A DNA stretch of 64,000 bases from assembly GCA_039919075.1 (NCBI GenBank), contig JBDSGJ010000005.1, positions 46,927 to 110,926 on the forward strand, in the 5' to 3' direction. The position numbers and the translations under genes are program-made. Shown in pieces: positions 15,408 through 64,000 of this stretch (its first letter is position 1; each line of letters opens with the position of its first letter). The notes under the pieces were generated by a model. That model did no database searches. It saw nothing but the letters and a program-made list of their open reading frames with translations, and had not been told where the DNA came from. This DNA comes from Sphingomicrobium sp. GTDB lineage: Bacteria; Pseudomonadota; Alphaproteobacteria; Sphingomonadales; Sphingomonadaceae.

Positions 15408-17432
<2,025 letters not shown>

Positions 17433-49602: not shown

Positions 49603-49682
49603 CATCCCGGGCCCGACCCGGGACCTACCTATCTTTCTTGGCCTGGTGCAAGATAAAGGTAGGCCCCGGATCAAGTCCGGGG
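49603..49682. repeat. REP-like composite palindrome (casposon target, left part)
   Basis: Hairpins TCCCGGG-ccga-type/CCCGGGA, CCTACCT...AGGTAGG and CCCCGGA-TCAAG-TCCGGGG; continues as CCGGATCAAGTCCGGGGTGACG at 63486. Confidence 0.75.
49666..49680 (+). repeat. Left target-site duplication CCGGATCAAGTCCGG
   Basis: Identical to 63486-63500. Confidence 0.9.
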
Positions 49683-49722
49683 GGTATAGTGATATGACGA
49701 AATCGATGGGTAGGTGACCACA
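49681..49722 (+). repeat. Left terminal inverted repeat
   Basis: GGGGTATAGTGATA-N19-GTGACCACA. Confidence 0.9.
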
Positions 49723-50162: not shown

Positions 50163-50203
50163 TCACTAACTGTTTTTTTTCGGCTGTGTGGGGGGGGCGA
50201 GTG

Positions 50204-53200
50204 ATGTTGGAATTTCGTCGGGTCAGCTTATTGCCCGCAAAGCGGCTTTTTTCGCTTGCCGCGCTTCTCTCGATTGCCCTCGCCGCCCCGAGCCATGGGC
50301 AAAGCGCGGGACCCGTAGCCAGCCCGCCTACTCGGCTAAACATCGATCAAAATGGTGTCGATGTTGTGTCGGGCACATTCGATATCCAACAAACCGATGT
50401 GGCCATCGGTCCACCCACGGGCGGCCTTCAGTACGTTCGAACGTCACGCGGTAGCGGCTGGCTAAACCCGTATTTCGGGACAATTAAAGTTTCAGGGTCG
50501 CAACGGATTGTCAGTATCGGCGGGCAGTCAACCACCTTCACGCTGACCGGTTCGGTCTACGTTTCGGATCAGGGCACCGGTGCCACGCTGGCCTACAACT
50601 CCTCAACACTCATTTATACATATACAACGCCTAATGGCGTTGTGGCGACCTTCGAGCCATTGATAAACACGAAAGTCCAATACACCGCTTACGCCGCGAC
50701 GTTAACAAAGCTCAAGTATCCGTCGGGTCTTGAACTCACAATGACCTACCGATTCCAAAATAACTGTGTTCGGGTCGGTAGTATTTGTGACGGTGGGGCT
50801 ACCAAGCGCGTTGCGCGTCTTCAATCGGCTAACTCGAATACGGGCTACCAACTAAAATTCGAATATGCCTACAATCCCAGTGATACACCGCCGTTCGATG
50901 TCGATCTCCTTGATAGCTGGTACCAACTCACCAGCGTCACGGGCCTCAATAACGCAGTCGAATATTGCGCGCCCTCCAGCAGTGTTTGCACCTACGTCAA
51001 TAGCTGGCCCAAGGCGCAGTACACAACTGACGGGCTGCAGGTTACGGACCCGCTCAATCGAGTGACCAAATACACTAAGGTAGCCAGTCGAATCACCGCC
51101 GTTCGGCGACCGTCGAGTGCCACAGATAACCTCACGCTGAGCTACGATGCGAATGCGCGGGTCGCCACTTTTTCAGACGGCGCTGGGGGTTGGACGTACG
51201 GCTACTCCGATGTGGGCAACGTCCGCACCACGACCGTCACGGATCCCGCCGGACATAACCGCATTATCGTTTCCGATCTTACATTGCTTCGTCCTACCGC
51301 AATCACGGACGAACTGGGTCGCACTACCAACTATCAATATGATGCGAATGGCCGTGTCACACGCGTCACACTTCCAGAGGGTAATTATACCAGTTTCACT
51401 TACGACGCGCGTGGGAACGAGACCCAGGCGACTTCGGTTGCGAAGGCGGGTTCGGGCTTGACTGATATAGTCGCCACCGCCAGCTATCCAGCAACGTGCA
51501 CGAATGTTGTCACATGTAACCAGCCGTCGTCGGCAACGGATGCTCGAGGAAACACCACCGACTATGTTTACGACCCGACTCATGGCGGTGTGACGAGCGT
51601 AACGTTACCTGCCCCGTCAGTTGGTGCGGTACGGCCGCAAACCCGATTCAGCTACACGCCTCTCTACGCTTGGTACAAGAACAGTGCAGGCACGATCGTC
51701 CAGGCGACATCGTCAGTTTACGAGCCTACCTCGACGTCGTCTTGCCAGTCGCTTGCTAGCTGCGCGGGCGGGTCCGATGAGGTCAAGCGAACGTTGACCT
51801 ACGGCACGTCGGGAGTCGCGAACAATCTTCTTCCGACAACATCATCGTCAGGGTCAGGGGATGGCCTACTAACTTCGACGACCACAAGTGTGTGGGATAT
51901 GTATGGTAACCCCTTCACGGTAGACGGGCCACTTGCCGGAACGGCAGACACGACGCGATTTCGGTATGACCTCGCACGTCAATTGACTGGAGTCGTCGGG
52001 CCGGATCCCGACGGCGCGGGCTCACTCAAAAATCGTGCAATGAGAAATACCTACAATCTCGATGGCCAGACGACATTAGTGGAGCGCGGCACTGTCAACA
52101 GTCAAAGCGATCCTGACTGGACGGCCTTCGCGACCTTGCAACAGGTTGCCACCAGCTACGACGCTCAGGGGCGGCGGGTAAAGGAAAGCGCGACCGCTGG
52201 CGGGACGACCTATGCGGTCACGCAATACAGCTACGACAGTATGAGTCGCGCCGATTGCACAGCAGTACGGATGAACAGCGCGGTGTTCGGTTCGCTGCCA
52301 GCCTCGGCCTGCACCGCTGGAACGCCGGGAAGCTTTGGAGCGGATCGAATCAGCAAGATGACTTACGATTGGGCGAGCGAACCTACGATATTGCAGTCCG
52401 CGCTTGGCACTGTCGACCAGGCCAATGACGTGACGCTGACTTACAGCAACAATGGCAAGAAAGCCACTTTGACGGACGCAAACGGAAATCTCACAACCAA
52501 TGAATATGACGGCTTCGATCTGCTGCTGAAAACGCGCTTTCCCTCGCCCACCGTGCCCGGAACGAGTTCGACGACGGACTATGAGCAGGCAACTTATGAT
52601 CCGGCGGCAAACGTAACGCAGAGACGTCTGCGTGACGGGCAGCTGATTGGCCTTACTTACGACGCACTCAATCGCGTCACAGCCAAGGATTTGCCGGGAG
52701 CCGAACCCGACGTCGCCTACACGTATGACAATCTGGGGCGCTTGTTGACTGCATCCCAGACTGGCCAGACGCTAACCTACTCATACGACGCACTTAGCCG
52801 CACCTTGTTGCAAGGTGGGCCGCTCGGGACAATGGCAACGCAATGGGACCTGGCCGGGCGGCGCACGCGGCTGACCTATCCGGACGCCTTCTACGTCACC
52901 TACGACAATCTTGTCACCGGTGAGGTGACAGCCATCCGCGAAAATGGAGCGGTCTCGGGCATCGGTGTACTGGGGGCGTACGCGTACGACAATCTGGGGC
53001 AGCGCTTGTCGCTTGTCAGAGGGAACGGAACTGCCAGCACTTATGGCGATGACTCAGTATCGCGCTTGATCTCGCTAGCGCATGACCTGTCGGGGACGAA
53101 CAATGACCTTACGGTGGGCCTAACCTACTCACCTGCAGCGCAGATTGCGACACGGACAGCGAGCAACGATCTTTATGCGTGGGGCGGGCATTATAATCGC

Positions 53201-54409
53201 GACATCATCGAAACGCCCAATGGATTGAACCAGTTGACTGTTCAGGGAGCAACATCACTGACCTATGACGGTCGCGGCAACACGTCGGCGGTGGGCGCTG
53301 CGAGCTATGGTTATTCGTCGGAGAATCTCCTGACTTCCGGTCCCGCCGGAGTGACTCTCAACTACGATCCGGCGCAGCGGTTGTATCAGACGGTGGGCGC
53401 CTCGACGACGCGGTTCGGCTATGATGGCGTGGAGATGATCGGGGAATATGATGGCAGTGCCGCGCTGCAGCGGCGCTATGTGCGCGGGCCGGGCAGCGAC
53501 GAGGTCCTTGTATGGTACGAAGGCAGTGGCACGGTCGATCGGCGCTGGGTCTATCAGGACGAGCGCGGCTCGACGATCGCCATCGCCAATGCCAGTGGTG
53601 CGCTCACCAATGTGTTGAGCTACGATGAATATGGCTCCCCGGCGACGGCTAATGTCGGGCGGTTTCAGTATAGCGGACAAATGTGGTTGCCCGAGCTTGG
53701 AATGGCCTATTACAAGGCGCGCATCTACGCGCCCGGTCTCGGGCGATTCATGCAGACCGACCCGATCGGCTATGCTGCTGGGATGAATCTCTACGCCTAT
53801 GTCGGGGGCGACCCCGTCAACTTCGGAGACCCTGACGGATTGTGCAGCAACAAGATCGCCGAGACCACCGACCCGAAGTGCCTTGCGCAAGACGGCAATG
53901 GAGGAATCTGGGATCGCGGGGAGTGGCGTCCGGATATACCTGTGGTGGGCAAGCCCTTCCAGCCTGGCTTTAGCGCGGGGACGACGTTTGGATCGGCGGT
54001 CGGCTATCAAATTCCTAGCGGCAACGGGAACGCAGGGACCGGCGTCGAAATGGCTTGCGTTGGACCGCTAAGAGCGCTTGCTGGAGCGTGTGCTCGCGCC
54101 TTGAACGACGTATTGAAGAGAGTTCTTCCTGAGGTAAAAGTGCCCACGCTGCCACCCGGTGTGACGCCCCGGCAATTCGGTGACGCGGCAGGCTTCGGCC
54201 GGTCACTAAAGGACCTACCCCTGCGGAGTGCAGACGACGTAGCAAACTCTGCAAACAGACTTCAGTCGATGGGTTTTACATCCAACGACGTCGCAGCGTG
54301 GCGGAATTTCTACCAGGATCAGTCATGGCGGGTGCCACAGAATCTCAGTGCGGCACATAGAGCCGGCCTTCTGGACAGAATATGGTGGAACATGAAGCTC
54401 CCATTTTGA
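50204..54409 (+). CDS. RHS/YD-repeat polymorphic toxin with signal peptide
   Basis: Many YD repeats (YDANGRVT, YDALNRVT, YDNLGRLL); core end GRFMQTDPIGY...NLYAYVGGDPVNFGDPDG followed by a variable C-terminal domain of about 190 aa. Confidence 0.92.
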   Translation: MLEFRRVSLLPAKRLFSLAALLSIALAAPSHGQSAGPVASPPTRLNIDQNGVDVVSGTFDIQQTDVAIGPPTGGLQYVRTSRGSGWLNPYFGTIKVSGSQRIVSIGGQSTTFTLTGSVYVSDQGTGATLAYNSSTLIYTYTTPNGVVATFEPLINTKVQYTAYAATLTKLKYPSGLELTMTYRFQNNCVRVGSICDGGATKRVARLQSANSNTGYQLKFEYAYNPSDTPPFDVDLLDSWYQLTSVTGLNNAVEYCAPSSSVCTYVNSWPKAQYTTDGLQVTDPLNRVTKYTKVASRITAVRRPSSATDNLTLSYDANARVATFSDGAGGWTYGYSDVGNVRTTTVTDPAGHNRIIVSDLTLLRPTAITDELGRTTNYQYDANGRVTRVTLPEGNYTSFTYDARGNETQATSVAKAGSGLTDIVATASYPATCTNVVTCNQPSSATDARGNTTDYVYDPTHGGVTSVTLPAPSVGAVRPQTRFSYTPLYAWYKNSAGTIVQATSSVYEPTSTSSCQSLASCAGGSDEVKRTLTYGTSGVANNLLPTTSSSGSGDGLLTSTTTSVWDMYGNPFTVDGPLAGTADTTRFRYDLARQLTGVVGPDPDGAGSLKNRAMRNTYNLDGQTTLVERGTVNSQSDPDWTAFATLQQVATSYDAQGRRVKESATAGGTTYAVTQYSYDSMSRADCTAVRMNSAVFGSLPASACTAGTPGSFGADRISKMTYDWASEPTILQSALGTVDQANDVTLTYSNNGKKATLTDANGNLTTNEYDGFDLLLKTRFPSPTVPGTSSTTDYEQATYDPAANVTQRRLRDGQLIGLTYDALNRVTAKDLPGAEPDVAYTYDNLGRLLTASQTGQTLTYSYDALSRTLLQGGPLGTMATQWDLAGRRTRLTYPDAFYVTYDNLVTGEVTAIRENGAVSGIGVLGAYAYDNLGQRLSLVRGNGTASTYGDDSVSRLISLAHDLSGTNNDLTVGLTYSPAAQIATRTASNDLYAWGGHYNRDIIETPNGLNQLTVQGATSLTYDGRGNTSAVGAASYGYSSENLLTSGPAGVTLNYDPAQRLYQTVGASTTRFGYDGVEMIGEYDGSAALQRRYVRGPGSDEVLVWYEGSGTVDRRWVYQDERGSTIAIANASGALTNVLSYDEYGSPATANVGRFQYSGQMWLPELGMAYYKARIYAPGLGRFMQTDPIGYAAGMNLYAYVGGDPVNFGDPDGLCSNKIAETTDPKCLAQDGNGGIWDRGEWRPDIPVVGKPFQPGFSAGTTFGSAVGYQIPSGNGNAGTGVEMACVGPLRALAGACARALNDVLKRVLPEVKVPTLPPGVTPRQFGDAAGFGRSLKDLPLRSADDVANSANRLQSMGFTSNDVAAWRNFYQDQSWRVPQNLSAAHRAGLLDRIWWNMKLPF

Positions 54410-54762: not shown

Positions 54763-57700
54763 TCAGGTTTTGGAGGGGGGACTACACGGCACTGTGTGGG
54801 GAGACTCCGGTGCCGTTTCGGAACCATGGGTTGTGTGGGTTGAGCGCTCATTCGATGACTTCAGTTTACGTCGCAGGTTCGACGGATCGATCTCAAGCCG
54901 CCGCGCAGTTGCTCGAAGTCCGTCACGTCTCACGGAGACCCGAAGATGGCCAAGTTCGGCCTGCCGTTCGCCACTAAACTTAGCTGCTAGACGTCGGGCC
55001 GTTGGCAATCGCCTCGTTACTTTCTCCGCCAGCTTTTTGATCTTAGGAGATTCCGGGTCTGCCACGAGTGCCTTCAGGCGAGAAATTGGAATGCCAATCA
55101 GCCTCGACCCGGTCGCGTCACCAAAGTCAAACAGATAGGATCGCAGCTCCTCGGCTACTTGGTCGGGTGACGCGCCATAAGCGACGAGGCTGTCTGGATT
55201 GAGCCCAAGGATGGCTAGCCGCTGCCAGTCGTTCGATTCCTTGCCGATATGGATGACGTGACCGGCGTGGATATGGCGCCGCCTCGTCGTGCCCCGGTCC
55301 CAGTAATCCCCGTTTAGGAACTTCGACTCAGGTTGAAGATAGTATTGGGCGAGTGCCTCAGCGTAGGTTTTGAGCGCGTCACTCGAAATCGGATCACCGC
55401 TGATTCGATCAAATGCCCCCCCTATCGCCTTAGCGTTAGACGAATCGAAGGGCGCAATTGGCCTGATGTCCGTTCGCTTCAACCGCTTCGCCCGGCGTTC
55501 GCTATCGATTACGCTTTCGACCGGCGCATCCTTCTTCGCCGTCATCGCCAGCAAAAAGCCGAATGGCTTCACCTGACTGCGATACGGCTTTCCCTTATTG
55601 AATTTCGAGAACCATTTGAGCAATTCGGGGGTAGTAGCCCCATAGCGGCTAATTGCCGGTCGCCTAAGGCCTGGATGAAAATCCATTGGCACCCTATTAG
55701 GATTGCCGCTCAGTGCAGCACAAATGATTTGATACCAAACATCCGCGTGCCAGCGCTCAATCCCTTTGCCCAAGACGGACCTATCCGGCGCCAGTATTGA
55801 TTTTGGCGCATCCGTTTCTGGATAGGGTGCTAAATGCTGCCCTAAGCCGTGAGCCGATACCTTTCGCATCATCGGCTTTTCGTCCGCTCCTAAATTAAAA
55901 AGAGCATAGCGTTTCGACGATATGGCCCAGCAGAAAAGCGGCTCCGGCAAATTGCTTTGAAGTCCCGAATTCACATCCTCAGTTTTTAGGATCGAACCTG
56001 GAAAACAATAGGGGTTCAGCGCCTCGAACCAATTCACAATCGACGCAACGCGGCTTTCAAATTCGGACGGATTCATCCCATCAGGCTTTGCAATCGCAAT
56101 GCTATCAGTATCGCAAAAAGCCCAATCCATTCCGCTTTCGATTGTCAGCGTCTCGGCAATTGCCAACATTAGCCGAGCGGCGCCTGTAATGAGTGTGCCG
56201 AGCAATGGATGAAAATACGAGCCGGGCATTTCCGATTTATCGGTTTCAAAGCTAAACGGCTCGCACGTAGAGCTATGCACTGTCGTTTTCGATTTGGAAG
56301 CGCGGCTATCGACATTGACCTCGATATAGATTCCATAGCTGACCGAATTGGCCGCAATCTTCAGCGCGTTCTGTTCAGTGTCCAGCGAATCCAATTCATT
56401 GCCAGTCGCCCCGGCCTTCCGGCCCTGAGTGGCCTTTCGCAATTCGATTAGCCGTTTGAAGAAATCGTCTTCGTAAGGTTCGATATGATAGTCCGGATTG
56501 CCAGCGATATCGATCGGTCGGAGACCGTCTTGCGGTATTCCCGCCTCAAACGAGATAGCTTCCAAAACTTCGAGCGATTTGCCGGTCAAAAGCTTTGAAG
56601 CGATGCAGTCCGCCAGCGTGAACCACAGCGGGGTTGCAGAGGTTAGGTGATTGGCGCCGATGGTCGTTTGCGCCTCGCCGCTGTACGCAGCGCGGACTGG
56701 GAAGATTTCCCCCGCCGCTTGGACGCGAACAAGAGTGGTCAGGCCGAGCCAGATTGGCTTGGACTGGAGCACAAGCAAGTCGATCGCTTCCAGCAGCTCC
56801 CTTGTCTCCGTTGTCGAGTCGCGCCACGTAACCCCTTCAGCCGCCACAAATCGCCATAGATTCATGAGCGTGCAAACTGTCGGGTACATCGATAGGAAGT
56901 CGCAAAGGATGATCTGCCGCATCTCGCGCCGAATGCGAACCTCGGAGCGCCCGCCGAAATAGCTGCCCATGATCTTGGCGAGCAGGTGGCGGGGAAATTC
57001 CGGTTGCACGTCGCGCCATGGGCGAACGCCCATTTCCCTGAGATAGCCCTTGCCGATGCTGGCTTCGCTGTAAATTTTCTCTGGTATGGTTCGCGAGAAA
57101 CCAAGCTTGGCGAACCGCCGTTGTAATTCGGCATAGCATTCCCAGGTCGTTTGAACGTCGCCGACCGCATAGCGGACCATATCCTCGGTGATTGGCCCGT
57201 TGAATTCATCGAATTCGATTTTGGGATTGGCTACTTTCAGGAAATTGCCCAAGCCTTGGAGACTAAAGCTTCTAGCAAACAAGGCTGAGGCCAAAGTCTT
57301 GACGTCAATGAAATGCCCGCGCCGGACTGGGATCGCCAGCCCACGATTGCGGTGACCGCGACCGTCCTTTTGACGCATCGGCGCCGAGAAGGCGATTAGG
57401 GCCGATCGGCGGGACAAATGCTTGACTCGGATATTGGGCCAGATTTTTTGCTCGGACAGTTTGAAGGTGAAGGCGCCCCGCATAGGAGCTTTGTCTTGGG
57501 CGAGCGGCGTCTTGGCCGTCCCATGGCTAATCGCTATGCGGGATATATCGAACGGAAGGTTAAATCCGACGATCGTTGCCCGGAGCATATAAGCCCGCTG
57601 GAAAAAGACTTCATCGACGAATTCAGTTCGCGTTCGCAGTTTGAGACCGTGCAAAGCCGCATGCTGACCGATGACCTCAAGTTCGGACGGCAAGACTCCC

Positions 57701-57954
57701 TCAGGATCGTAGAAGATTCCAGCTTCGTCCAATTCTTCGCCGCACCGAAATTGATAGGTGCCGAAGCGGAGCGCTTGCGCCGCATCGGTTGTAGTCTCGG
57801 TATCGAATATCAGCGTGAAGTCAGACGCCGGGAGTGCAGGCTTGCGCTCCTTGCGCGGCGGTTTGTTCGGGTCCGGCAAGATCGTGAACGTCGGTCCGGT
57901 ATACGCCCGCAGCGCGATTGGAAGAAAGTCCGTGATTGGGGGGATGTTGGACAT
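54763..57954 (-). CDS. polB: Family B DNA polymerase (casposon, probably protein-primed type) with C-terminal HTH
   Basis: ExoI FDTETT, ExoII GFNLPFD, ExoIII YAVGD; YFGGRSE; motif A CDFLSMYP; motif B KIAANSVSYG; motif C CDTDS. Confidence 0.93.
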   Translation of the reverse strand: MSNIPPITDFLPIALRAYTGPTFTILPDPNKPPRKERKPALPASDFTLIFDTETTTDAAQALRFGTYQFRCGEELDEAGIFYDPEGVLPSELEVIGQHAALHGLKLRTRTEFVDEVFFQRAYMLRATIVGFNLPFDISRIAISHGTAKTPLAQDKAPMRGAFTFKLSEQKIWPNIRVKHLSRRSALIAFSAPMRQKDGRGHRNRGLAIPVRRGHFIDVKTLASALFARSFSLQGLGNFLKVANPKIEFDEFNGPITEDMVRYAVGDVQTTWECYAELQRRFAKLGFSRTIPEKIYSEASIGKGYLREMGVRPWRDVQPEFPRHLLAKIMGSYFGGRSEVRIRREMRQIILCDFLSMYPTVCTLMNLWRFVAAEGVTWRDSTTETRELLEAIDLLVLQSKPIWLGLTTLVRVQAAGEIFPVRAAYSGEAQTTIGANHLTSATPLWFTLADCIASKLLTGKSLEVLEAISFEAGIPQDGLRPIDIAGNPDYHIEPYEDDFFKRLIELRKATQGRKAGATGNELDSLDTEQNALKIAANSVSYGIYIEVNVDSRASKSKTTVHSSTCEPFSFETDKSEMPGSYFHPLLGTLITGAARLMLAIAETLTIESGMDWAFCDTDSIAIAKPDGMNPSEFESRVASIVNWFEALNPYCFPGSILKTEDVNSGLQSNLPEPLFCWAISSKRYALFNLGADEKPMMRKVSAHGLGQHLAPYPETDAPKSILAPDRSVLGKGIERWHADVWYQIICAALSGNPNRVPMDFHPGLRRPAISRYGATTPELLKWFSKFNKGKPYRSQVKPFGFLLAMTAKKDAPVESVIDSERRAKRLKRTDIRPIAPFDSSNAKAIGGAFDRISGDPISSDALKTYAEALAQYYLQPESKFLNGDYWDRGTTRRRHIHAGHVIHIGKESNDWQRLAILGLNPDSLVAYGASPDQVAEELRSYLFDFGDATGSRLIGIPISRLKALVADPESPKIKKLAEKVTRRLPTARRLAAKFSGERQAELGHLRVSVRRDGLRATARRLEIDPSNLRRKLKSSNERSTHTTHGSETAPESPHTVPCSPPSKT

Positions 57955-58316
57955 TAGAAATCTCCCGAGGGTGTTGGTGCAGAGCGTTCGATAAGCTGTT
58001 CGCCAAAGGTCGTGAGCTTTTCGAGGATGCGTCGAAGCATGTCGGCCAGGCCAAGCAGAAAGCGGCCAATGGCGTGCAACGTCGCATCGGCGTTCGGATC
58101 GAAGGCCGGATGGTCCTTCTGGGTATCGGATAGCTTGCGGTGGCAATTGCGACATGCGATCACGGTGGTGTCATCGCAGCCGAAATCGGCGGCGTGATGA
58201 AGCTCCATGCAGCGCCAGTCATCTTCGCCGCAAATGCAGCAGCTCGGTTCATTCGATCCTAGCGCTTCGAGCCGACGCTGCTTTCGCTGTTCCCACTTAA
58301 GTTGATCTTCGGTCAC
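57954..58316 (-). CDS. HNH endonuclease-like Zn-binding protein
   Basis: CCICG...ELHH...IACRNCHRK; GGAG RBS before the GTG; its stop overlaps the polB ATG (TAATG). Confidence 0.8.
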   Translation of the reverse strand: MTEDQLKWEQRKQRRLEALGSNEPSCCICGEDDWRCMELHHAADFGCDDTTVIACRNCHRKLSDTQKDHPAFDPNADATLHAIGRFLLGLADMLRRILEKLTTFGEQLIERSAPTPSGDF

Positions 58317-58329
58317 GTTAGTTCTCCTT

Positions 58330-58899
58330 TCAAATGATGAGACGGTAGATTTCATGGAAAACTTCATCGCCCTGCGCGGCCATGCGGTGCAGGCGGTTGG
58401 GGTCAGTTTCGAGGGGATGCATCTTGCCATGCACATCGCGGACCGAACGGCCTTCGAAGGGTCGGAGCAGGTCGATATCGTTCGAGTTCAGAAAGGCGCC
58501 GACTGCTGCCGAGTGCTGGCCATTGAGGGAGGCTTGCTCAAAGCCGTCGAGCGTAAGTTCTTTCGAATCGCCCTCAGTTATGACCGTCATGCGACGCGGG
58601 CGGTTGTCGGTGATTTGCCAAAGGCGCCCGGTCCGTTGTGCAAGGGAGTTGTGGCGCAGGAAACGGCGGAATCGCTCGGGTGCGACCCCGGCCTGTTTCG
58701 CAGCGGCGGCTTGGCGACCCGTTTGGCGTAGGAGCTTCAGCGCCGCTTCAAGCTTTTGGTCGGTAATGAAAGGCTGAGCGCGAACGGGCGACTCGATCGA
58801 TCGAGCGTGGCCGCGAGCCTGCGACCGACTCAGGCCGCGCTTGGCGGCGTTCGCGATGCGGCGCTGATATTCAGCCTGATAGTTGCGAGTCGTTGCCAT
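58330..58899 (-). CDS. Hypothetical DNA-binding protein (HTH-like)
   Basis: AAAAKQAGVAPERFRRFL helix-turn-helix-like segment; first gene of the operon with HNH and polB. Confidence 0.6.
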   Translation of the reverse strand: MATTRNYQAEYQRRIANAAKRGLSRSQARGHARSIESPVRAQPFITDQKLEAALKLLRQTGRQAAAAKQAGVAPERFRRFLRHNSLAQRTGRLWQITDNRPRRMTVITEGDSKELTLDGFEQASLNGQHSAAVGAFLNSNDIDLLRPFEGRSVRDVHGKMHPLETDPNRLHRMAAQGDEVFHEIYRLII

Positions 58900-58973: not shown

Positions 58974-59633
58974 TCAATTCGATTTCCAAAAGACCTTCAA
59001 ATGCCGATCAATAGCTCTATTACTTGGAGCGGAATTCGTAAAAATATGAGGAAACATTATTAGACCATGGCGATGAACAGCGGACGATTGTCGGCCCGGC
59101 TTCAATCCTTCTATTTGACTCTTGATCGATTCTGCGATTGCAAAAACATAGCTTTTAATTGAGGGGCGTCCTATTTTGGTTTCCTGTAGTTCAATGGCCC
59201 CAGCGACACGCACCTTGGCATAACGGTATTCGCCGTCGCGGAATTCTGACTTTCGGTAATCAATAAATTTGTGTTGAAAGAGAAAGGGCGGAACAAGCTC
59301 ATGTGGTGCATCTGACCCTTTTGAGGTGAGAAAACCAATTGCAATTAGCCGACCGCTTTCGAGAGCTTCGATAAATTGGTTTTGCTGACTGCAATATGAT
59401 TCGGTCCTTATCGCCAAATCGACCTGCAAATTTTCTGCGGCCTTAAAAATTAGCTCCGCATCGCTACCGGCAGTCGCGAATTTATGCCGCGAATATTGCG
59501 AATTATCCCTGATTTGGCCTTCAACTTTTGCTAGTCGGGATTCGTCCGGATTTGGCACGAACGTCGCCAATATCTTGCTTAGCGGCGTGCCGCTTTGCCA
59601 CAAACGGGACAGGGTCGCGGTGCTTAGTGGCAT
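58974..59633 (-). CDS. Hypothetical protein (start could extend to 59702)
   Basis: Long open frame in an AT-rich stretch; C-terminal GRPS followed by a helical segment. Confidence 0.6.
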   Translation of the reverse strand: MPLSTATLSRLWQSGTPLSKILATFVPNPDESRLAKVEGQIRDNSQYSRHKFATAGSDAELIFKAAENLQVDLAIRTESYCSQQNQFIEALESGRLIAIGFLTSKGSDAPHELVPPFLFQHKFIDYRKSEFRDGEYRYAKVRVAGAIELQETKIGRPSIKSYVFAIAESIKSQIEGLKPGRQSSAVHRHGLIMFPHIFTNSAPSNRAIDRHLKVFWKSN

Positions 59634-59729
59634 GAGGGCGGCGGCTGAATAGTCATTGGGAATCCGGTGATAAGGGGCGGATTTTAAAGACCCGTTAACC
59701 ACCTAAACATGATGTGAATTCAGCTCTTT

Positions 59730-60851
59730 ATGTTAAAGGTCGGTATGCTCCATGGAATTGAAATTCGATCCGACGAAATTGCCGACGAGTGGGCGATCCG
59801 CTCTGAGTTCTGGCAAGGCGAAGCGGCTTCCCCGAAACGGGTTCGTCGCAAGCGAGAGCGCAACGCGCAACCCTTAATTTTATGCGGACATGGCGTGTCG
59901 CTCCGGATTGAAAATGGCGCGCTCGTAATTCGGGACGGCTTCACGCATTACCCACAAGAGCAGGCGCGGTATCGGTTTTTCCCACGCGACCTAGAGCTTC
60001 CAACGCGCATTCTCTTGCTGGACGGTAGTGGAACCCTCTCGTTCGACGTATTGAACTGGCTTGCCGACCAAGGCGTTGCACTGGCCCGCATCAAATGGAC
60101 TGGCGAGGTCGCGACAGTGGCGGGCGGGAATGGTTACGCGGCGGACCCCGCGAAATTGGATTGGCAGAAGGAAACTCGTGGCAACCCCGCGAAACGCCAC
60201 GCTTTTGCAGCCAATCTTATTCGCCTGAAAGTTGTTGCCAGCCTCGATACGCTTGAGCGCTGCATCCCGGACACTCGCGCCCGCCAAATGGCGACCGGAA
60301 AAGCAAGGGCGGCGATCGAACGACTCCAAGTCGAAGTTTTCCCTGACTTGAATGCGATATTTGCGGTCGAAGGTGAGTGTGCGTCATCCTACTTCGCGGC
60401 GTGGCACGGACTGCCGGTTCATTGGATTGGGCTTTCTAGGCGTCCCGTTCCCAATGATTGGCAGTGCTACTCGGGGCGCAGCTCGCTCGCAGTTGGCATC
60501 AAACCGGAGAACCGGAACGCCTCACACCCTATCAACGCGATGTTGAATTACGCTTACGCGGTGAAACTCTCGCAGCTTCAAATCGACACGATCGCGGGCG
60601 GGTTCGATCCCAGACTGGGGATCATGCATAACAGTCACAAGGGCACCCCGGCGCTGGTTTTGGATTTCATCGAGCTAGAGAGGCCCCGCGTTGACGCAAA
60701 GATATTGGAACTGGTCGCAACCCGCAAATTTGCGGCGGCTGATTTCATCGTAAAGGATGATGGTGTCTGTCGCCTGTCGCCGCAGCTAGCGCGGGCCGTC
60801 GCCATCCTTACGGTCCAATGCAAACCGTTTGGACTTCCGACCACGCTTTAA
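59730..60851 (+). CDS. cas1: Stand-alone Cas1 (casposase)
   Basis: Cas1 catalytic-type motifs EGECASSYF, INAMLNYAY, GFDPRLGIMH, LVLDFIELERPRVD; N-terminal LRIENGALVI beta domain; no cas2 or array nearby. Confidence 0.92.
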   Translation: MLKVGMLHGIEIRSDEIADEWAIRSEFWQGEAASPKRVRRKRERNAQPLILCGHGVSLRIENGALVIRDGFTHYPQEQARYRFFPRDLELPTRILLLDGSGTLSFDVLNWLADQGVALARIKWTGEVATVAGGNGYAADPAKLDWQKETRGNPAKRHAFAANLIRLKVVASLDTLERCIPDTRARQMATGKARAAIERLQVEVFPDLNAIFAVEGECASSYFAAWHGLPVHWIGLSRRPVPNDWQCYSGRSSLAVGIKPENRNASHPINAMLNYAYAVKLSQLQIDTIAGGFDPRLGIMHNSHKGTPALVLDFIELERPRVDAKILELVATRKFAAADFIVKDDGVCRLSPQLARAVAILTVQCKPFGLPTTL

Positions 60852-61085
60852 GCCCGCTTCCAAGGCACCCCCCTCAGCAAGCGGCACGAACAGCTCGCTT
60901 AGGTGAACGCCCAATGTCGCGGCGAGTTTGTCGAGGACATCAACGCTCGGATTCTCCTCAGCGCGTTCCACTCCACCTAAATAGGAACGGTCCACTCCAG
61001 CATCAAAAGCAAGCCGTTCTTGCGAAACATCACTCGCAACGCGAATGCGCCTTAGGTTTCGTGCAATGATATCGCGCCCGCGCAT
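60786..61085 (-). CDS. XRE family HTH regulator
   Basis: NLRRIR...VSQERLA..AGVDRSYLGGVERAEENPSVDVLDKLA. Confidence 0.9.
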   Translation of the reverse strand: MRGRDIIARNLRRIRVASDVSQERLAFDAGVDRSYLGGVERAEENPSVDVLDKLAATLGVHLSELFVPLAEGGALEAGLKRGRKSKRFALDRKDGDGPR

Positions 61086-63443: not shown

Positions 63444-63485
63444 TGTGGTCACACTCGCTCGGTTCAGCAGCTATCACTATACCCC
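63444..63485 (-). repeat. Right terminal inverted repeat
   Basis: TGTGGTCAC-N19-TATCACTATACCCC, the reverse complement of the left-end architecture. Confidence 0.9.
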
Positions 63486-63500
63486 CCGGATCAAGTCCGG
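63486..63500 (+). repeat. Right target-site duplication CCGGATCAAGTCCGG
   Basis: Identical to 49666-49680. Confidence 0.9.
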
Positions 63501-63518
63501 GGTGACGAAGAGAGGTAG

Positions 63519-64000
63519 ATGAAACGCCCCTGTTTCAAGATCGAGCGCCAGTTCGCCGAACCGCTGGCCGGGGTCGACGAAGCGGGCTGCGCGCCGCTCG
63601 CCGGGCCCGTCGTGGCGGGGGCGGTTGTGCTCGACCGCGATCATTTTCCACGCGGGATCGATGACAGCAAGAAGCTCGATCTCGAAACGCGCGAGGCGAT
63701 CTTCGGGCGATTGCAGAAGGTCGCGCGGATCGGGGTCGGGATTGCCTCAGTGGAGGAGATCGACACGCTCAACATCTATTGGGCGCGAATGCTGGCGATG
63801 AAGCGCGCGGTGGAAGCGCTGGGATTCGAACCGGCCTTCGTGCTGGTCGACGGCAACCGCCTGCCGCGCTGGGAGCGGACCGAGGCCAAGGCGATCGTCA
63901 AGGGCGACACCAAGTGCCGTTCGATCGCCGCCGCCTCCATCGTTGCCAAGGTCACGCGCGATCGGATCATGCTTGAGCATAGCCGGACCTATCCGGGCTA
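63519..64000 (+). CDS. rnhB: Ribonuclease HII (partial, runs off the window end)
   Basis: Manual translation: AGVDEAG..PLAGPVVAGAV, DDSKKL, LVDGN, KGD....SIAAASIVAKVTRD. Confidence 0.95.
   Translation, partial: MKRPCFKIERQFAEPLAGVDEAGCAPLAGPVVAGAVVLDRDHFPRGIDDSKKLDLETREAIFGRLQKVARIGVGIASVEEIDTLNIYWARMLAMKRAVEALGFEPAFVLVDGNRLPRWERTEAKAIVKGDTKCRSIAAASIVAKVTRDRIMLEHSRTYPG

Follow-up and report, generated by a model that had tools for sequence, protein, structure and literature searches.

The 64,000-nucleotide stretch of Sphingomicrobium sp. DNA analysed here (contig JBDSGJ010000005.1, hereafter the window) contains a bacterial (family 3) casposon of 13.8 kb. Casposons are a known kind of self-replicating mobile element. 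Three of its genes, encoding a putative winged-helix protein of 189 amino acids (aa), called p189, a putative HNH nuclease and a family B DNA polymerase (PolB), form a unit that is conserved even in relatives whose PolB is only 32% identical. We tentatively propose that this trio is a replication-initiation module, in which p189 would be an end-binding initiator acting with the HNH protein and PolB, and we hold this reading to be possible, at a little less than an even chance.

The three genes are co-oriented on the minus strand (54763-58899; Table 1), and the 13-bp gap and the TAATG overlap reported in a preliminary description of this DNA are borne out by the coordinates. The HNH gene opens with a GTG exactly 13 nt beyond the TGA stop of p189; a Shine-Dalgarno sequence, AAGGAG, precedes this start by 7 nt, and the TAA stop of the HNH gene shares two bases with the ATG of PolB to give the overlap. 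These spacings and overlaps are the arrangement expected for translational coupling. A 160-aa, ATG-started version of the HNH open reading frame (ORF) was rejected, as it overlaps the p189 gene and has no homologue support.

The same arrangement was found in the relatives. Among the six genomic relatives, with PolB 41-56% identical, the order p189-HNH-PolB is kept in all six with short gaps or overlaps. The metagenome contig scan was seeded with the PolB alignment, hence it is unbiased toward p189, and it gave 80 loci with PolB 32-70% identical. Gene order was counted in the 55 of these loci where an intact PolB start is preceded by 1150 bp or more of sequence, and both p189 and the HNH gene are located upstream of PolB on the same strand in 53 of them. 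The HNH start lies a median of 13 nt beyond the p189 stop (n=57), and the projected PolB start a median of about -10 nt from the HNH stop, that is, an overlap (n=64). Because the same order recurs in both the genomic and the metagenomic loci, the arrangement is not a matter of chance. Absence of the 189-aa gene from related elements, which had been set down beforehand as a refutation of its proposed role, is thus not what was seen. Cas1 stands beside the trio in most relatives, and the p189-HNH-PolB unit stays intact in the metagenomic loci where the position or orientation of Cas1 changes.

Several individual loci deserve mention. The two exceptions among the 55 loci are L087, with neither HNH nor p189 upstream of PolB, and L095 (1410-2982), where HNH and Cas1 are present with no detectable p189 in the 1.5-kb gap. 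Cas1 lies upstream of the trio in L040, L060 and L064, where the two share a strand, and in L076 it lies on the downstream side of PolB. In L005 (6076-9307), a relative in genome G245, p189 is intact and PolB is frameshifted into two tblastn segments that lie in different frames, and this would be either a decaying copy or an assembly error. A second PolB or Cas1 fragment lies a few kb downstream of the intact module in L038 (10248-10646), L047 (11808-11999) and L072 (10741-10836), which suggests tandem or nested casposon remnants. The p189 gene is rare in the genome samples searched: it was found in 3 of 401 genomes class-wide and 6 of 401 order-wide, both counts including the source genome, and two of the six order-wide matches are HTH-only (helix-turn-helix) chance matches. 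The genome-contig scan with one PolB sequence gave one locus only, and no PolB relative was found in the plasmid collection.

For p189, at least 822 homologues were found, all of them unnamed, and 1948 cluster representatives at E<=1e-3. The best 150 representatives have lengths of 106-315 aa, almost all of 185-205 aa, and no fusion to a polymerase was found among them. The protein has no Pfam, NCBIfam or PDB sequence match; a profile search of PDB gave at most a weak HTH match, and the ESM Atlas gave only generic HTH clusters, below 0.85. It is highly basic, with an isoelectric point (pI) of 10.9. The AlphaFold model (pLDDT 84) consists of an N-terminal helix, a short Arg-rich helix, a winged HTH, an alpha/beta domain and a tail. 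The winged HTH aligns in VIA-align with those of ModE, LysR-type, MukF and ScpB proteins with Z-scores of 5-6 and a root-mean-square deviation (rmsd) of about 2-2.5 A over 54-60 residues, and Foldseek matches it to LysR DNA-binding domains (rmsd 2.0-2.6). Weak HTH_28 and terminase-small HTH matches to the same region were obtained from the profile libraries. Therefore, the HTH-like nature that had been read from the sequence holds in the model, with Z-scores of about 6 to LysR, ModE and ScpB, and p189 is, as far as the model goes, predicted to be a basic winged-helix protein. The alpha/beta domain (residues 102-176) remained unmatched in the fold searches of whole p189, and it was never searched alone.

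Residue conservation in p189 was taken over 150 representatives with mutual identity of at most 50%. In the N-terminal basic motif, R14 is conserved in 124/124, R5 in 110/111, Y11 in 118/122 and H31 in 123/133 representatives, and the motif is lost or altered in some distant relatives. The most conserved residue is Tyr185 (136/136), which is also present in all 61 locus-derived homologues, including those whose PolB is 32-36% identical. It is part of a tail with the pattern F-x-x-(I/V)-Y-(R/K)-(I/L)-(V/I), which reads F-x-x-I-Y-R-L-I in the window protein and is modelled with low confidence (pLDDT 36).

The protein between p189 and PolB is acidic (pI 5.3) and has weak but consistent matches to PHROG HNH endonucleases (E 1e-3), with no Pfam match above threshold. 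Residues C26, C29, E38, H41, C55, N57 and H59 are conserved in 57 homologues, and from this pattern the 120-aa protein is read as a putatively active zinc-finger HNH nuclease. In the phi29-like Bacillus phage QCM11 (L102, 1-1341) the genes for an HNH endonuclease, a terminal protein and a DNA polymerase follow one another in this order, which is a naturally occurring case of HNH adjoining a protein-priming module.

At least 2113 homologues of PolB were found. Across 32 sequences, the exonuclease residues D51 and E53 (ExoI), N132 and D136 (ExoII) and Y262 and D266 (ExoIII) are invariant, as are D352 and Y357 of motif A, K532, N536, Y540 and G541 of motif B, C614-D615-T616-D617-S618 of motif C, and K681, the Lys of KxY; Y683 of KxY is nearly invariant (>=90%). 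The KxY motif is the canonical SKRY at 680-683 and motif C of the window protein is FCDTDS, by which PolB is assigned to the PolB_CDTDS group on its sequence. Motif C alone is not exclusive to this group, because phi29 and PRD1 also read YCDTDS where (F/Y)CDTDS is found here and YGDTDS in Pol II. The PolB_CDTDS cluster includes the A. boonei casposon polymerase and is reported to be related to both the main and the protein-primed PolBs (PMC7544198), and our mixed Pfam and fold results match that reported link. For example, DNA_pol_B matches 30 of the 32 PolB relatives around motif B (best E 1.4e-6), and DNA_pol_B_2 matches 12 of the 32 from ExoIII to motif A (best E 6.2e-9), its gathering score being passed in this ExoIII-motif A region only and by two relatives, L013 (35.7 bits) and L091 (30.5 bits). 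A PDB search with the single PolB sequence gave nothing relevant, and with the PolB profile the only matches were archaeal PolB and Pol alpha, at E ~0.01.

The PolB model (pLDDT 75, pTM 0.70) was inspected for its architecture. ExoI is located at residue 51, compared with 9 in phi29, 17 in PRD1 and 156 in Pol II, and only a short hairpin (residues 9-21) precedes it in the model; therefore, PolB appears to be without the N-terminal domain of RNA-primed PolBs. The preliminary description had suggested a search for TPR1/TPR2 (terminal protein region) insertions and had counted their absence as a refutation, and in the model there are insertions at both positions. At the TPR1 position, the elements run from E375-379 to E463-471 with pLDDT 85-94 except for one block at 70, and the spacing from motif A to motif B is 180 aa, compared with 134 in phi29, 120 in PRD1 and ~74 in E. 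coli Pol II. At the TPR2 position, the model has strands E546-560 and E567-577 (pLDDT 63-67), and motifs B and C are 83 aa apart, compared with 73 in phi29, 88 in PRD1 and ~52 in Pol II. Both Pol II spacings rest on the motif B position that we take to be right for that enzyme.

By VIA-align, PolB aligns with phi29 polymerase with Z 14.8 and rmsd 4.6 A over 499/572 residues, with Pol epsilon with Z 14.9 and rmsd 7.3 A, and with archaeal PolB with Z 14.0 and rmsd 7.1 A over 488/742 residues, the aligned share of the chain being smaller for the latter two than for phi29. Since TPR1 and TPR2 of phi29 comprise ~130 residues and ~73 phi29 residues are unaligned, we infer that at least about 55 TPR residues would have counterparts in the modelled PolB. 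In BFVD, the top five matches are a tectivirus (3e-15), His1 (4e-14), Sulfolobus ellipsoid virus 1 (SEV1), GA-1 and one unclassified virus, and the four that are named belong to virus groups that are protein-primed. Herpesvirus and baculovirus polymerases come behind at 1e-11 to 1e-9, by two to four orders of magnitude. Taken from the model, the architecture of PolB leans to the protein-primed or primer-independent layout. TPR1/TPR2-like insertions do not by themselves mean protein priming, because the primer-independent piPolBs carry them (PMC5695915).

The conserved PolB core ends near residue 917, and ~380 residues follow KxY, HTH motifs included. A C-terminal HTH extension had been noted beforehand, and it was identified here as a Fis-type HTH; the string quoted from it, GLRATARRLEIDPSNLRRKL, corresponds to PolB residues 1012-1031. 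HTH_8 matches the window PolB at E 0.027 and 10 of the 32 relatives, with a best E of 1.7e-4. Two tail HTH motifs are found in the window PolB, L001 and L012, one in L006 and L014 (scored HTH_3), and none in the Kordiimonas element L013. The terminal HTH was seen in 26 metagenomic relatives but not in 37 others, so that ~40% carry it, and it is an accessory tether and not a core feature. A C-terminal HTH on family 2 casposon PolBs was already reported (PMC4046053). A comparison of p189 with the PolB C-terminal tail gave E 0.06 with a common L-E-x-D-P-x-x-L-x-R, which is not significant and was set aside.

The element that carries the trio is delimited by its two ends (Table 1), which form 31-nt inverted arms including an exact 19-bp direct repeat. 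At the left end the 19-bp hairpin repeat CCCCGGATCAAGTCCGGGG is followed by the terminal block GGTATAGTGATA, with TGACCACA ~19-20 nt further inward. The GC content falls from 0.64 to 0.55 at ~50000 and is low over the element, and rnhB follows the right end at 63519. Cas1 is a Cas1-solo casposase (Pfam Cas_Cas1 E 1.5e-30; TIGR00287 78.9 bits above its cut-off), by which the element is recognised as a casposon, its gene is divergent from the trio with PolB ~1.8 kb away, and no CRISPR-like repeat family was found in the element region by repeat analysis. The same end structure was found at 12 ends of related elements. At the ends of L001, L018, L020, L023, L024, L031, L050 and L060, the block GGGTATAGTGA always comes after a GC-rich palindrome ending GGG, and the sequence of this palindrome differs between elements. 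Either casposons insert beside hairpins (REP-like repeats or terminators), or the hairpin belongs to the end. The PRD1 genome end (L016, 1-11), GGGGATACGTG, and the casposon end (window 49679-49694), GGGGTATAGTG, both start with a G-run, a likeness that may be coincidence.

From these components, initiation can be pictured as follows. First, p189 would recognise the conserved end blocks (GGGTATAGTGA ... TGACCACA), in some elements helped by the HTH tail of PolB, and would bring HNH and PolB to the casposon end as a complex. HNH would then cut one strand at the junction of element and host, PolB would start at the cut end and copy the element by strand displacement, and Cas1 would integrate the copy. 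The TPR2 hairpin gives phi29 polymerase its processivity and strand displacement. We favour strand-displacement copying because no recognisable primase or helicase was found among the element ORFs (Pfam, NCBIfam) and because PolB has a predicted TPR2-like hairpin. The primer would more likely be the 3'-OH of the HNH nick, the main alternative being the hydroxyl of p189 Tyr185. The nick is preferred because in families 2 and 3 this PolB type is found together with HNH and an HTH protein, a terminal-protein candidate taking their place in family 1 (PMC4046053).

A number of results weigh against this initiation module. In print, the family 2 and 3 PolBs are RNA-primed, with a host primase suggested (PMC4046053, PMC4779613), and their HNH and HTH proteins are proposed to serve integration and target choice with Cas1 and not replication (PMC4046053). 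The window PolB itself is below the Pfam threshold, with 16.8 bits for DNA_pol_B and 12.6 bits for DNA_pol_B_2 (PF03175) against a cut-off of 25.8. In hhalign the PolB profile aligns with the single phi29, PRD1 and Pol II sequences at motif C only, equally weakly. The Z-scores to phi29, Pol epsilon and archaeal PolBs are tied, as are the Foldseek E-values to family B polymerases in PDB (E ~1e-11), and the view of the two insertions as TPR1/TPR2 counterparts is one to which the model leans by position, size and secondary structure. Binding of p189 to the casposon ends is suggested by fold and context only. Finally, the terminal block GGTATAGTGATA has no internal copy elsewhere in the window; therefore, specificity for it is neither supported nor refuted. 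A complex prediction with PolB 40-845 (part of the thumb being lost) and full p189 scored 0.09 against a mark of 0.32 and was counted neither way.

A different use of the same proteins is that p189 is a true terminal protein: PolB would prime from its Tyr185 (or Tyr11), p189 would stay 5'-bound, and HNH would only expose the template 3' end. We consider this unlikely, even though the PolB layout resembles that of protein-primed PolBs and the element has no primase gene. A gene for a small basic protein just upstream in a coupled operon is also near the canonical position known from the phi29 and PRD1 gene order, and phage QCM11 combines HNH, terminal protein and polymerase genes. The terminal proteins of PRD1 and Bam35 prime from a Tyr in their C-terminal part, which together with the invariance of Tyr185 speaks for this possibility; the same residue lies in a hydrophobic C-terminal peptide (F-x-x-I-Y-R-I-V) that is equally like a docking motif. 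The ends begin with a G-run (GGGGTATAG), the kind of repeat used in sliding-back, as at the PRD1 end GGGGATACG. Against it, p189 is the second gene upstream of polB in the window and in the relatives, the directly upstream position, taken as a mark of a terminal-protein gene, being held by HNH, and a universal HNH is not needed in known protein-primed systems. The p189 profile gave E 0.3 with the PRD1 terminal protein P8, E 0.096 with phi29 gp3 and E 0.06 with a 7-member phi29-type terminal-protein profile, none of which is significant, though terminal proteins are notoriously divergent. An N-terminal KAEY..R stretch was aligned in all three comparisons and was treated as chance. The predicted winged HTH and alpha/beta fold is unlike the helical phi29 terminal protein, and the occurrence of TPR1/TPR2 in piPolBs (PMC5695915) lessens the weight of the polymerase layout.

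Of the earlier suggestion that the 189-aa protein is a terminal or end-binding candidate, the part that stands is the conserved winged HTH in a coupled operon, while the intervening HNH gene and the missing similarity to terminal proteins do not favour the terminal half. Its premise, that PolB elements bounded by terminal inverted repeats (TIRs) are protein-primed, narrows in the same manner: in print this is proposed only for family 1, and families 2 and 3 are published as RNA-primed. Carried to its full extent, the terminal-protein idea states that the PolB_CDTDS of families 2 and 3 is protein-primed and strand-displacing, that p189 is the casposon terminal protein by way of Tyr185 and that HNH frees the template end, making a three-protein initiation system; we regard this as distinctly unlikely.

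It is also possible, with a similarly small chance, that p189 and HNH serve integration or excision. Here p189 would find the hairpin target or the ends for Cas1, in the manner of TnsD of Tn7, HNH would cut the second strand, and linkage to polB would reflect co-expression. Such a role has been proposed in print for HNH and the HTH proteins of family 2 and 3 elements (PMC4046053), and several features of the window agree with it. The Cas1 here is without the HTH domain of the family 2 casposases, which makes a separate DNA-binding subunit plausible; the p189 gene stands between cas1 and polB, next to the promoter region of the divergent cas1; and 12/12 related ends abut a palindromic hairpin ending GGG, which suggests specific target choice. 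The conserved spacing and overlaps join p189 to HNH and PolB, however, and it is Cas1 that varies in position and orientation. Moreover, every casposon of families 2 and 3 has HNH and most have the HTH protein, all with this PolB type, and neither is listed as conserved in family 1, which also integrates by Cas1 (PMC4046053).

Least probable, and in our estimate very unlikely, is that p189 is a transcriptional regulator of the divergent cas1 and polB operons and PolB a conventional RNA-primed enzyme served by the host primase: the winged HTH with a C-terminal alpha/beta domain is a common build of small regulators, with weak whole-chain Foldseek likeness to Fur and PerR, the p189 gene is at a divergent promoter region, the Pfam family found around motif B in most relatives (DNA_pol_B) is of the RNA/DNA-primed type, the weak PDB profile matches to archaeal PolB and Pol alpha point in the same direction and the published classification is RNA-primed (PMC4046053, PMC4779613), but the element already has, beside cas1, a distinct HTH regulator of the XRE type that is also kept in L001 and L012, a pure regulator would need neither the invariant C-terminal Tyr nor close spacing to a nuclease and a polymerase over such divergence, and the modelled PolB has both insertions and no RNA-primed N-terminal domain.

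The remaining features of the element are as follows. Its cargo includes an RHS gene (50186-54406), a Mrr-like nuclease gene and the XRE-type HTH gene. The latter (99 aa, 60789-61085) lies on the strand opposite to cas1 and overlaps its 3' end, is found in L001 and L012 at 58-65% identity, and probably encodes the element's own regulator. In L001 (13563-17258), a Sphingomonadales metagenome-assembled genome and the closest genomic relative (PolB 55% identical), an RHS-repeat gene is directly downstream of PolB. It is 42% identical to the window RHS; therefore, RHS cargo is common to at least two diverged elements. Between Cas1 and p189 there is a variable gene, p242, possibly the first gene of the transcript, with no family match in Pfam, NCBIfam and other profile libraries and, among the genomic relatives compared, a weak homologue in L001 only (22% identity). 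A promoter-like site (59736-59709, minus strand) lies near p242, and the promoter and terminator scan gave nothing beyond chance. Far from the casposon, ARAGORN reported a 96-nt tRNA-like gene (window 17293-17388) with an undetermined two-base anticodon.

Table 1. Positions in the window of the trio, of the domains and residues within it, and of the adjoining genes and ends of the casposon.
Feature	Position	Strand	Description or basis
p189 (189 aa)	58333..58899 (to 58330 with TGA stop)	-	ORF; first conserved gene of the trio
p189 basic motif, residues 5-31	58807..58887	-	R-D/N-Y-x-A-E-Y-x-R-R ... R-G-L-S-R-S-Q-A-R-G-H; alignment
p189 winged helix-turn-helix, residues 41-101	58597..58779	-	Model helices 48-60, 63-70, 74-84; hairpin 87-96
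p189 Tyr185 codon	58345..58347	-	Residue four to five positions from the C-terminus
HNH nuclease, putative (120 aa)	57957..58316	-	GTG start 58316-58314; TAA stop 57956-57954
Family B DNA polymerase PolB (1063 aa)	54766..57954 (ORF to 54763 with stop)	-	ATG 57954-57952
PolB insertion, ~125 aa, residues 372-497	56464..56841	-	TPR1 position; model, between motif A and fingers
PolB beta-hairpin, residues 546-577	56224..56319	-	TPR2 position; model, from fingers (motif B) to the palm helix before motif C
PolB helical tail, residues 930-1032	54859..55167	-	Two HTH-like motifs; model helices
PolB second tail motif, residues 1012-1031	54862-54921	-	Fis-type HTH; HTH_8
p242	58977..59702	-	ORF; variable gene between Cas1 and p189
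Cas1-solo (casposase), 373 aa	59730..60848	+	Cas1 domain only; divergent from the trio
Left casposon end	49664..49694		19-bp hairpin repeat, then terminal block
Right casposon end	63472..63502		Inverted terminal block, then direct copy of the 19-bp hairpin

When compared with known systems, the closest are the family 3 casposons (HenMar-C1 of Henriciella marina, CitBat-C1 and NitAL212-C1; PMC4046053, PMC4779613). They share with the window element a Cas1-solo without extra domains, PolB, HNH, a conserved HTH protein, TIRs, intergenic insertion and an alphaproteobacterial host, and the HenMar-C1 end (hairpin then GGGGATAAGGG) is of the same style as the end here (hairpin then GGGGTATAGTG). The window element is a different one with different cargo (RHS, Mrr-like nuclease), and the HenMar-C1 TIR was not found in the related loci collected here. 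We regard p189 as a putative orthologue of the conserved HTH protein in HenMar-C1, for which the family 3 papers give no structure, conserved residues or replication role (PMC4046053, PMC4779613). The family 2 archaeal core with its PolB_CDTDS (AciBoo-C1 of Aciduliprofundum boonei; PMC7544198) also has C-D-T-D-S, a PolB C-terminal HTH, HNH and small HTH proteins. It differs in that its Cas1 carries the same HTH as its PolB, whereas Cas1 here has none, and in that its second HTH protein has HEAT repeats, the second HTH protein here being the XRE-type one. In family 1, a bona fide protein-primed PolB is accompanied by a conserved candidate terminal-protein gene upstream of polB (PMC4046053).

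Outside the casposons, phi29 (gp3-gp2) and PRD1 (P8-P1) also have a gene for a small basic protein closely spaced upstream of polB, a polymerase with the exonuclease domain first, insertions at the TPR1/TPR2 positions (for PolB, in the model) and CDTDS in motif C, and a linear replicon bounded by TIRs with a G-run or repeat at its ends. Unlike in these, the HNH gene lies between p189 and polB here, p189 is without detectable similarity to their terminal proteins, PolB is almost twice as long, and the element is integrated and moved by Cas1. The piPolB of pipolins (PMC5695915) likewise comes from a self-replicating element of bacterial chromosomes that has no primase gene, and is a divergent PolB with TPR1/TPR2-like insertions. 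The piPolBs have an altered KxY (KTRG) and motif C and come with tyrosine integrases, whereas KxY is canonical here and the integrase is Cas1.

The gene set itself is already described: Cas1, HNH, a conserved HTH protein and PolB with a C-terminal HTH make up the core of casposon families 2 and 3 in the literature (PMC4046053, PMC4779613). New here are the order and spacing counts, the predicted winged-helix fold and Tyr185 of p189, the PolB layout, and the finding that only ~40% of relatives carry the C-terminal HTH of PolB. In the literature searched, we found no structural or residue-level account of the small HTH protein or of its invariant tyrosine, no statement that the PolB_CDTDS type has a protein-primed layout, and no biochemistry on that polymerase type.

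Casposons are proposed ancestors of the CRISPR adaptation machinery, and to our knowledge bench work has covered only their Cas1 integrase. The window element is one of a very large radiation in Sphingomonadales that is mostly unannotated (more than 2000 cluster representatives for PolB, about 1900 for p189), and this depth gives testable handles: the invariant tyrosine of p189, the conserved HNH active site, and a PolB build that argues against the RNA-primed label. Should PolB prove to be end-primed or protein-primed with strand displacement, this would settle how two casposon families replicate, and PolB could be useful as an enzyme of the phi29 kind; should it not, what is described here is a well-conserved but ordinary copy of a known gene set.

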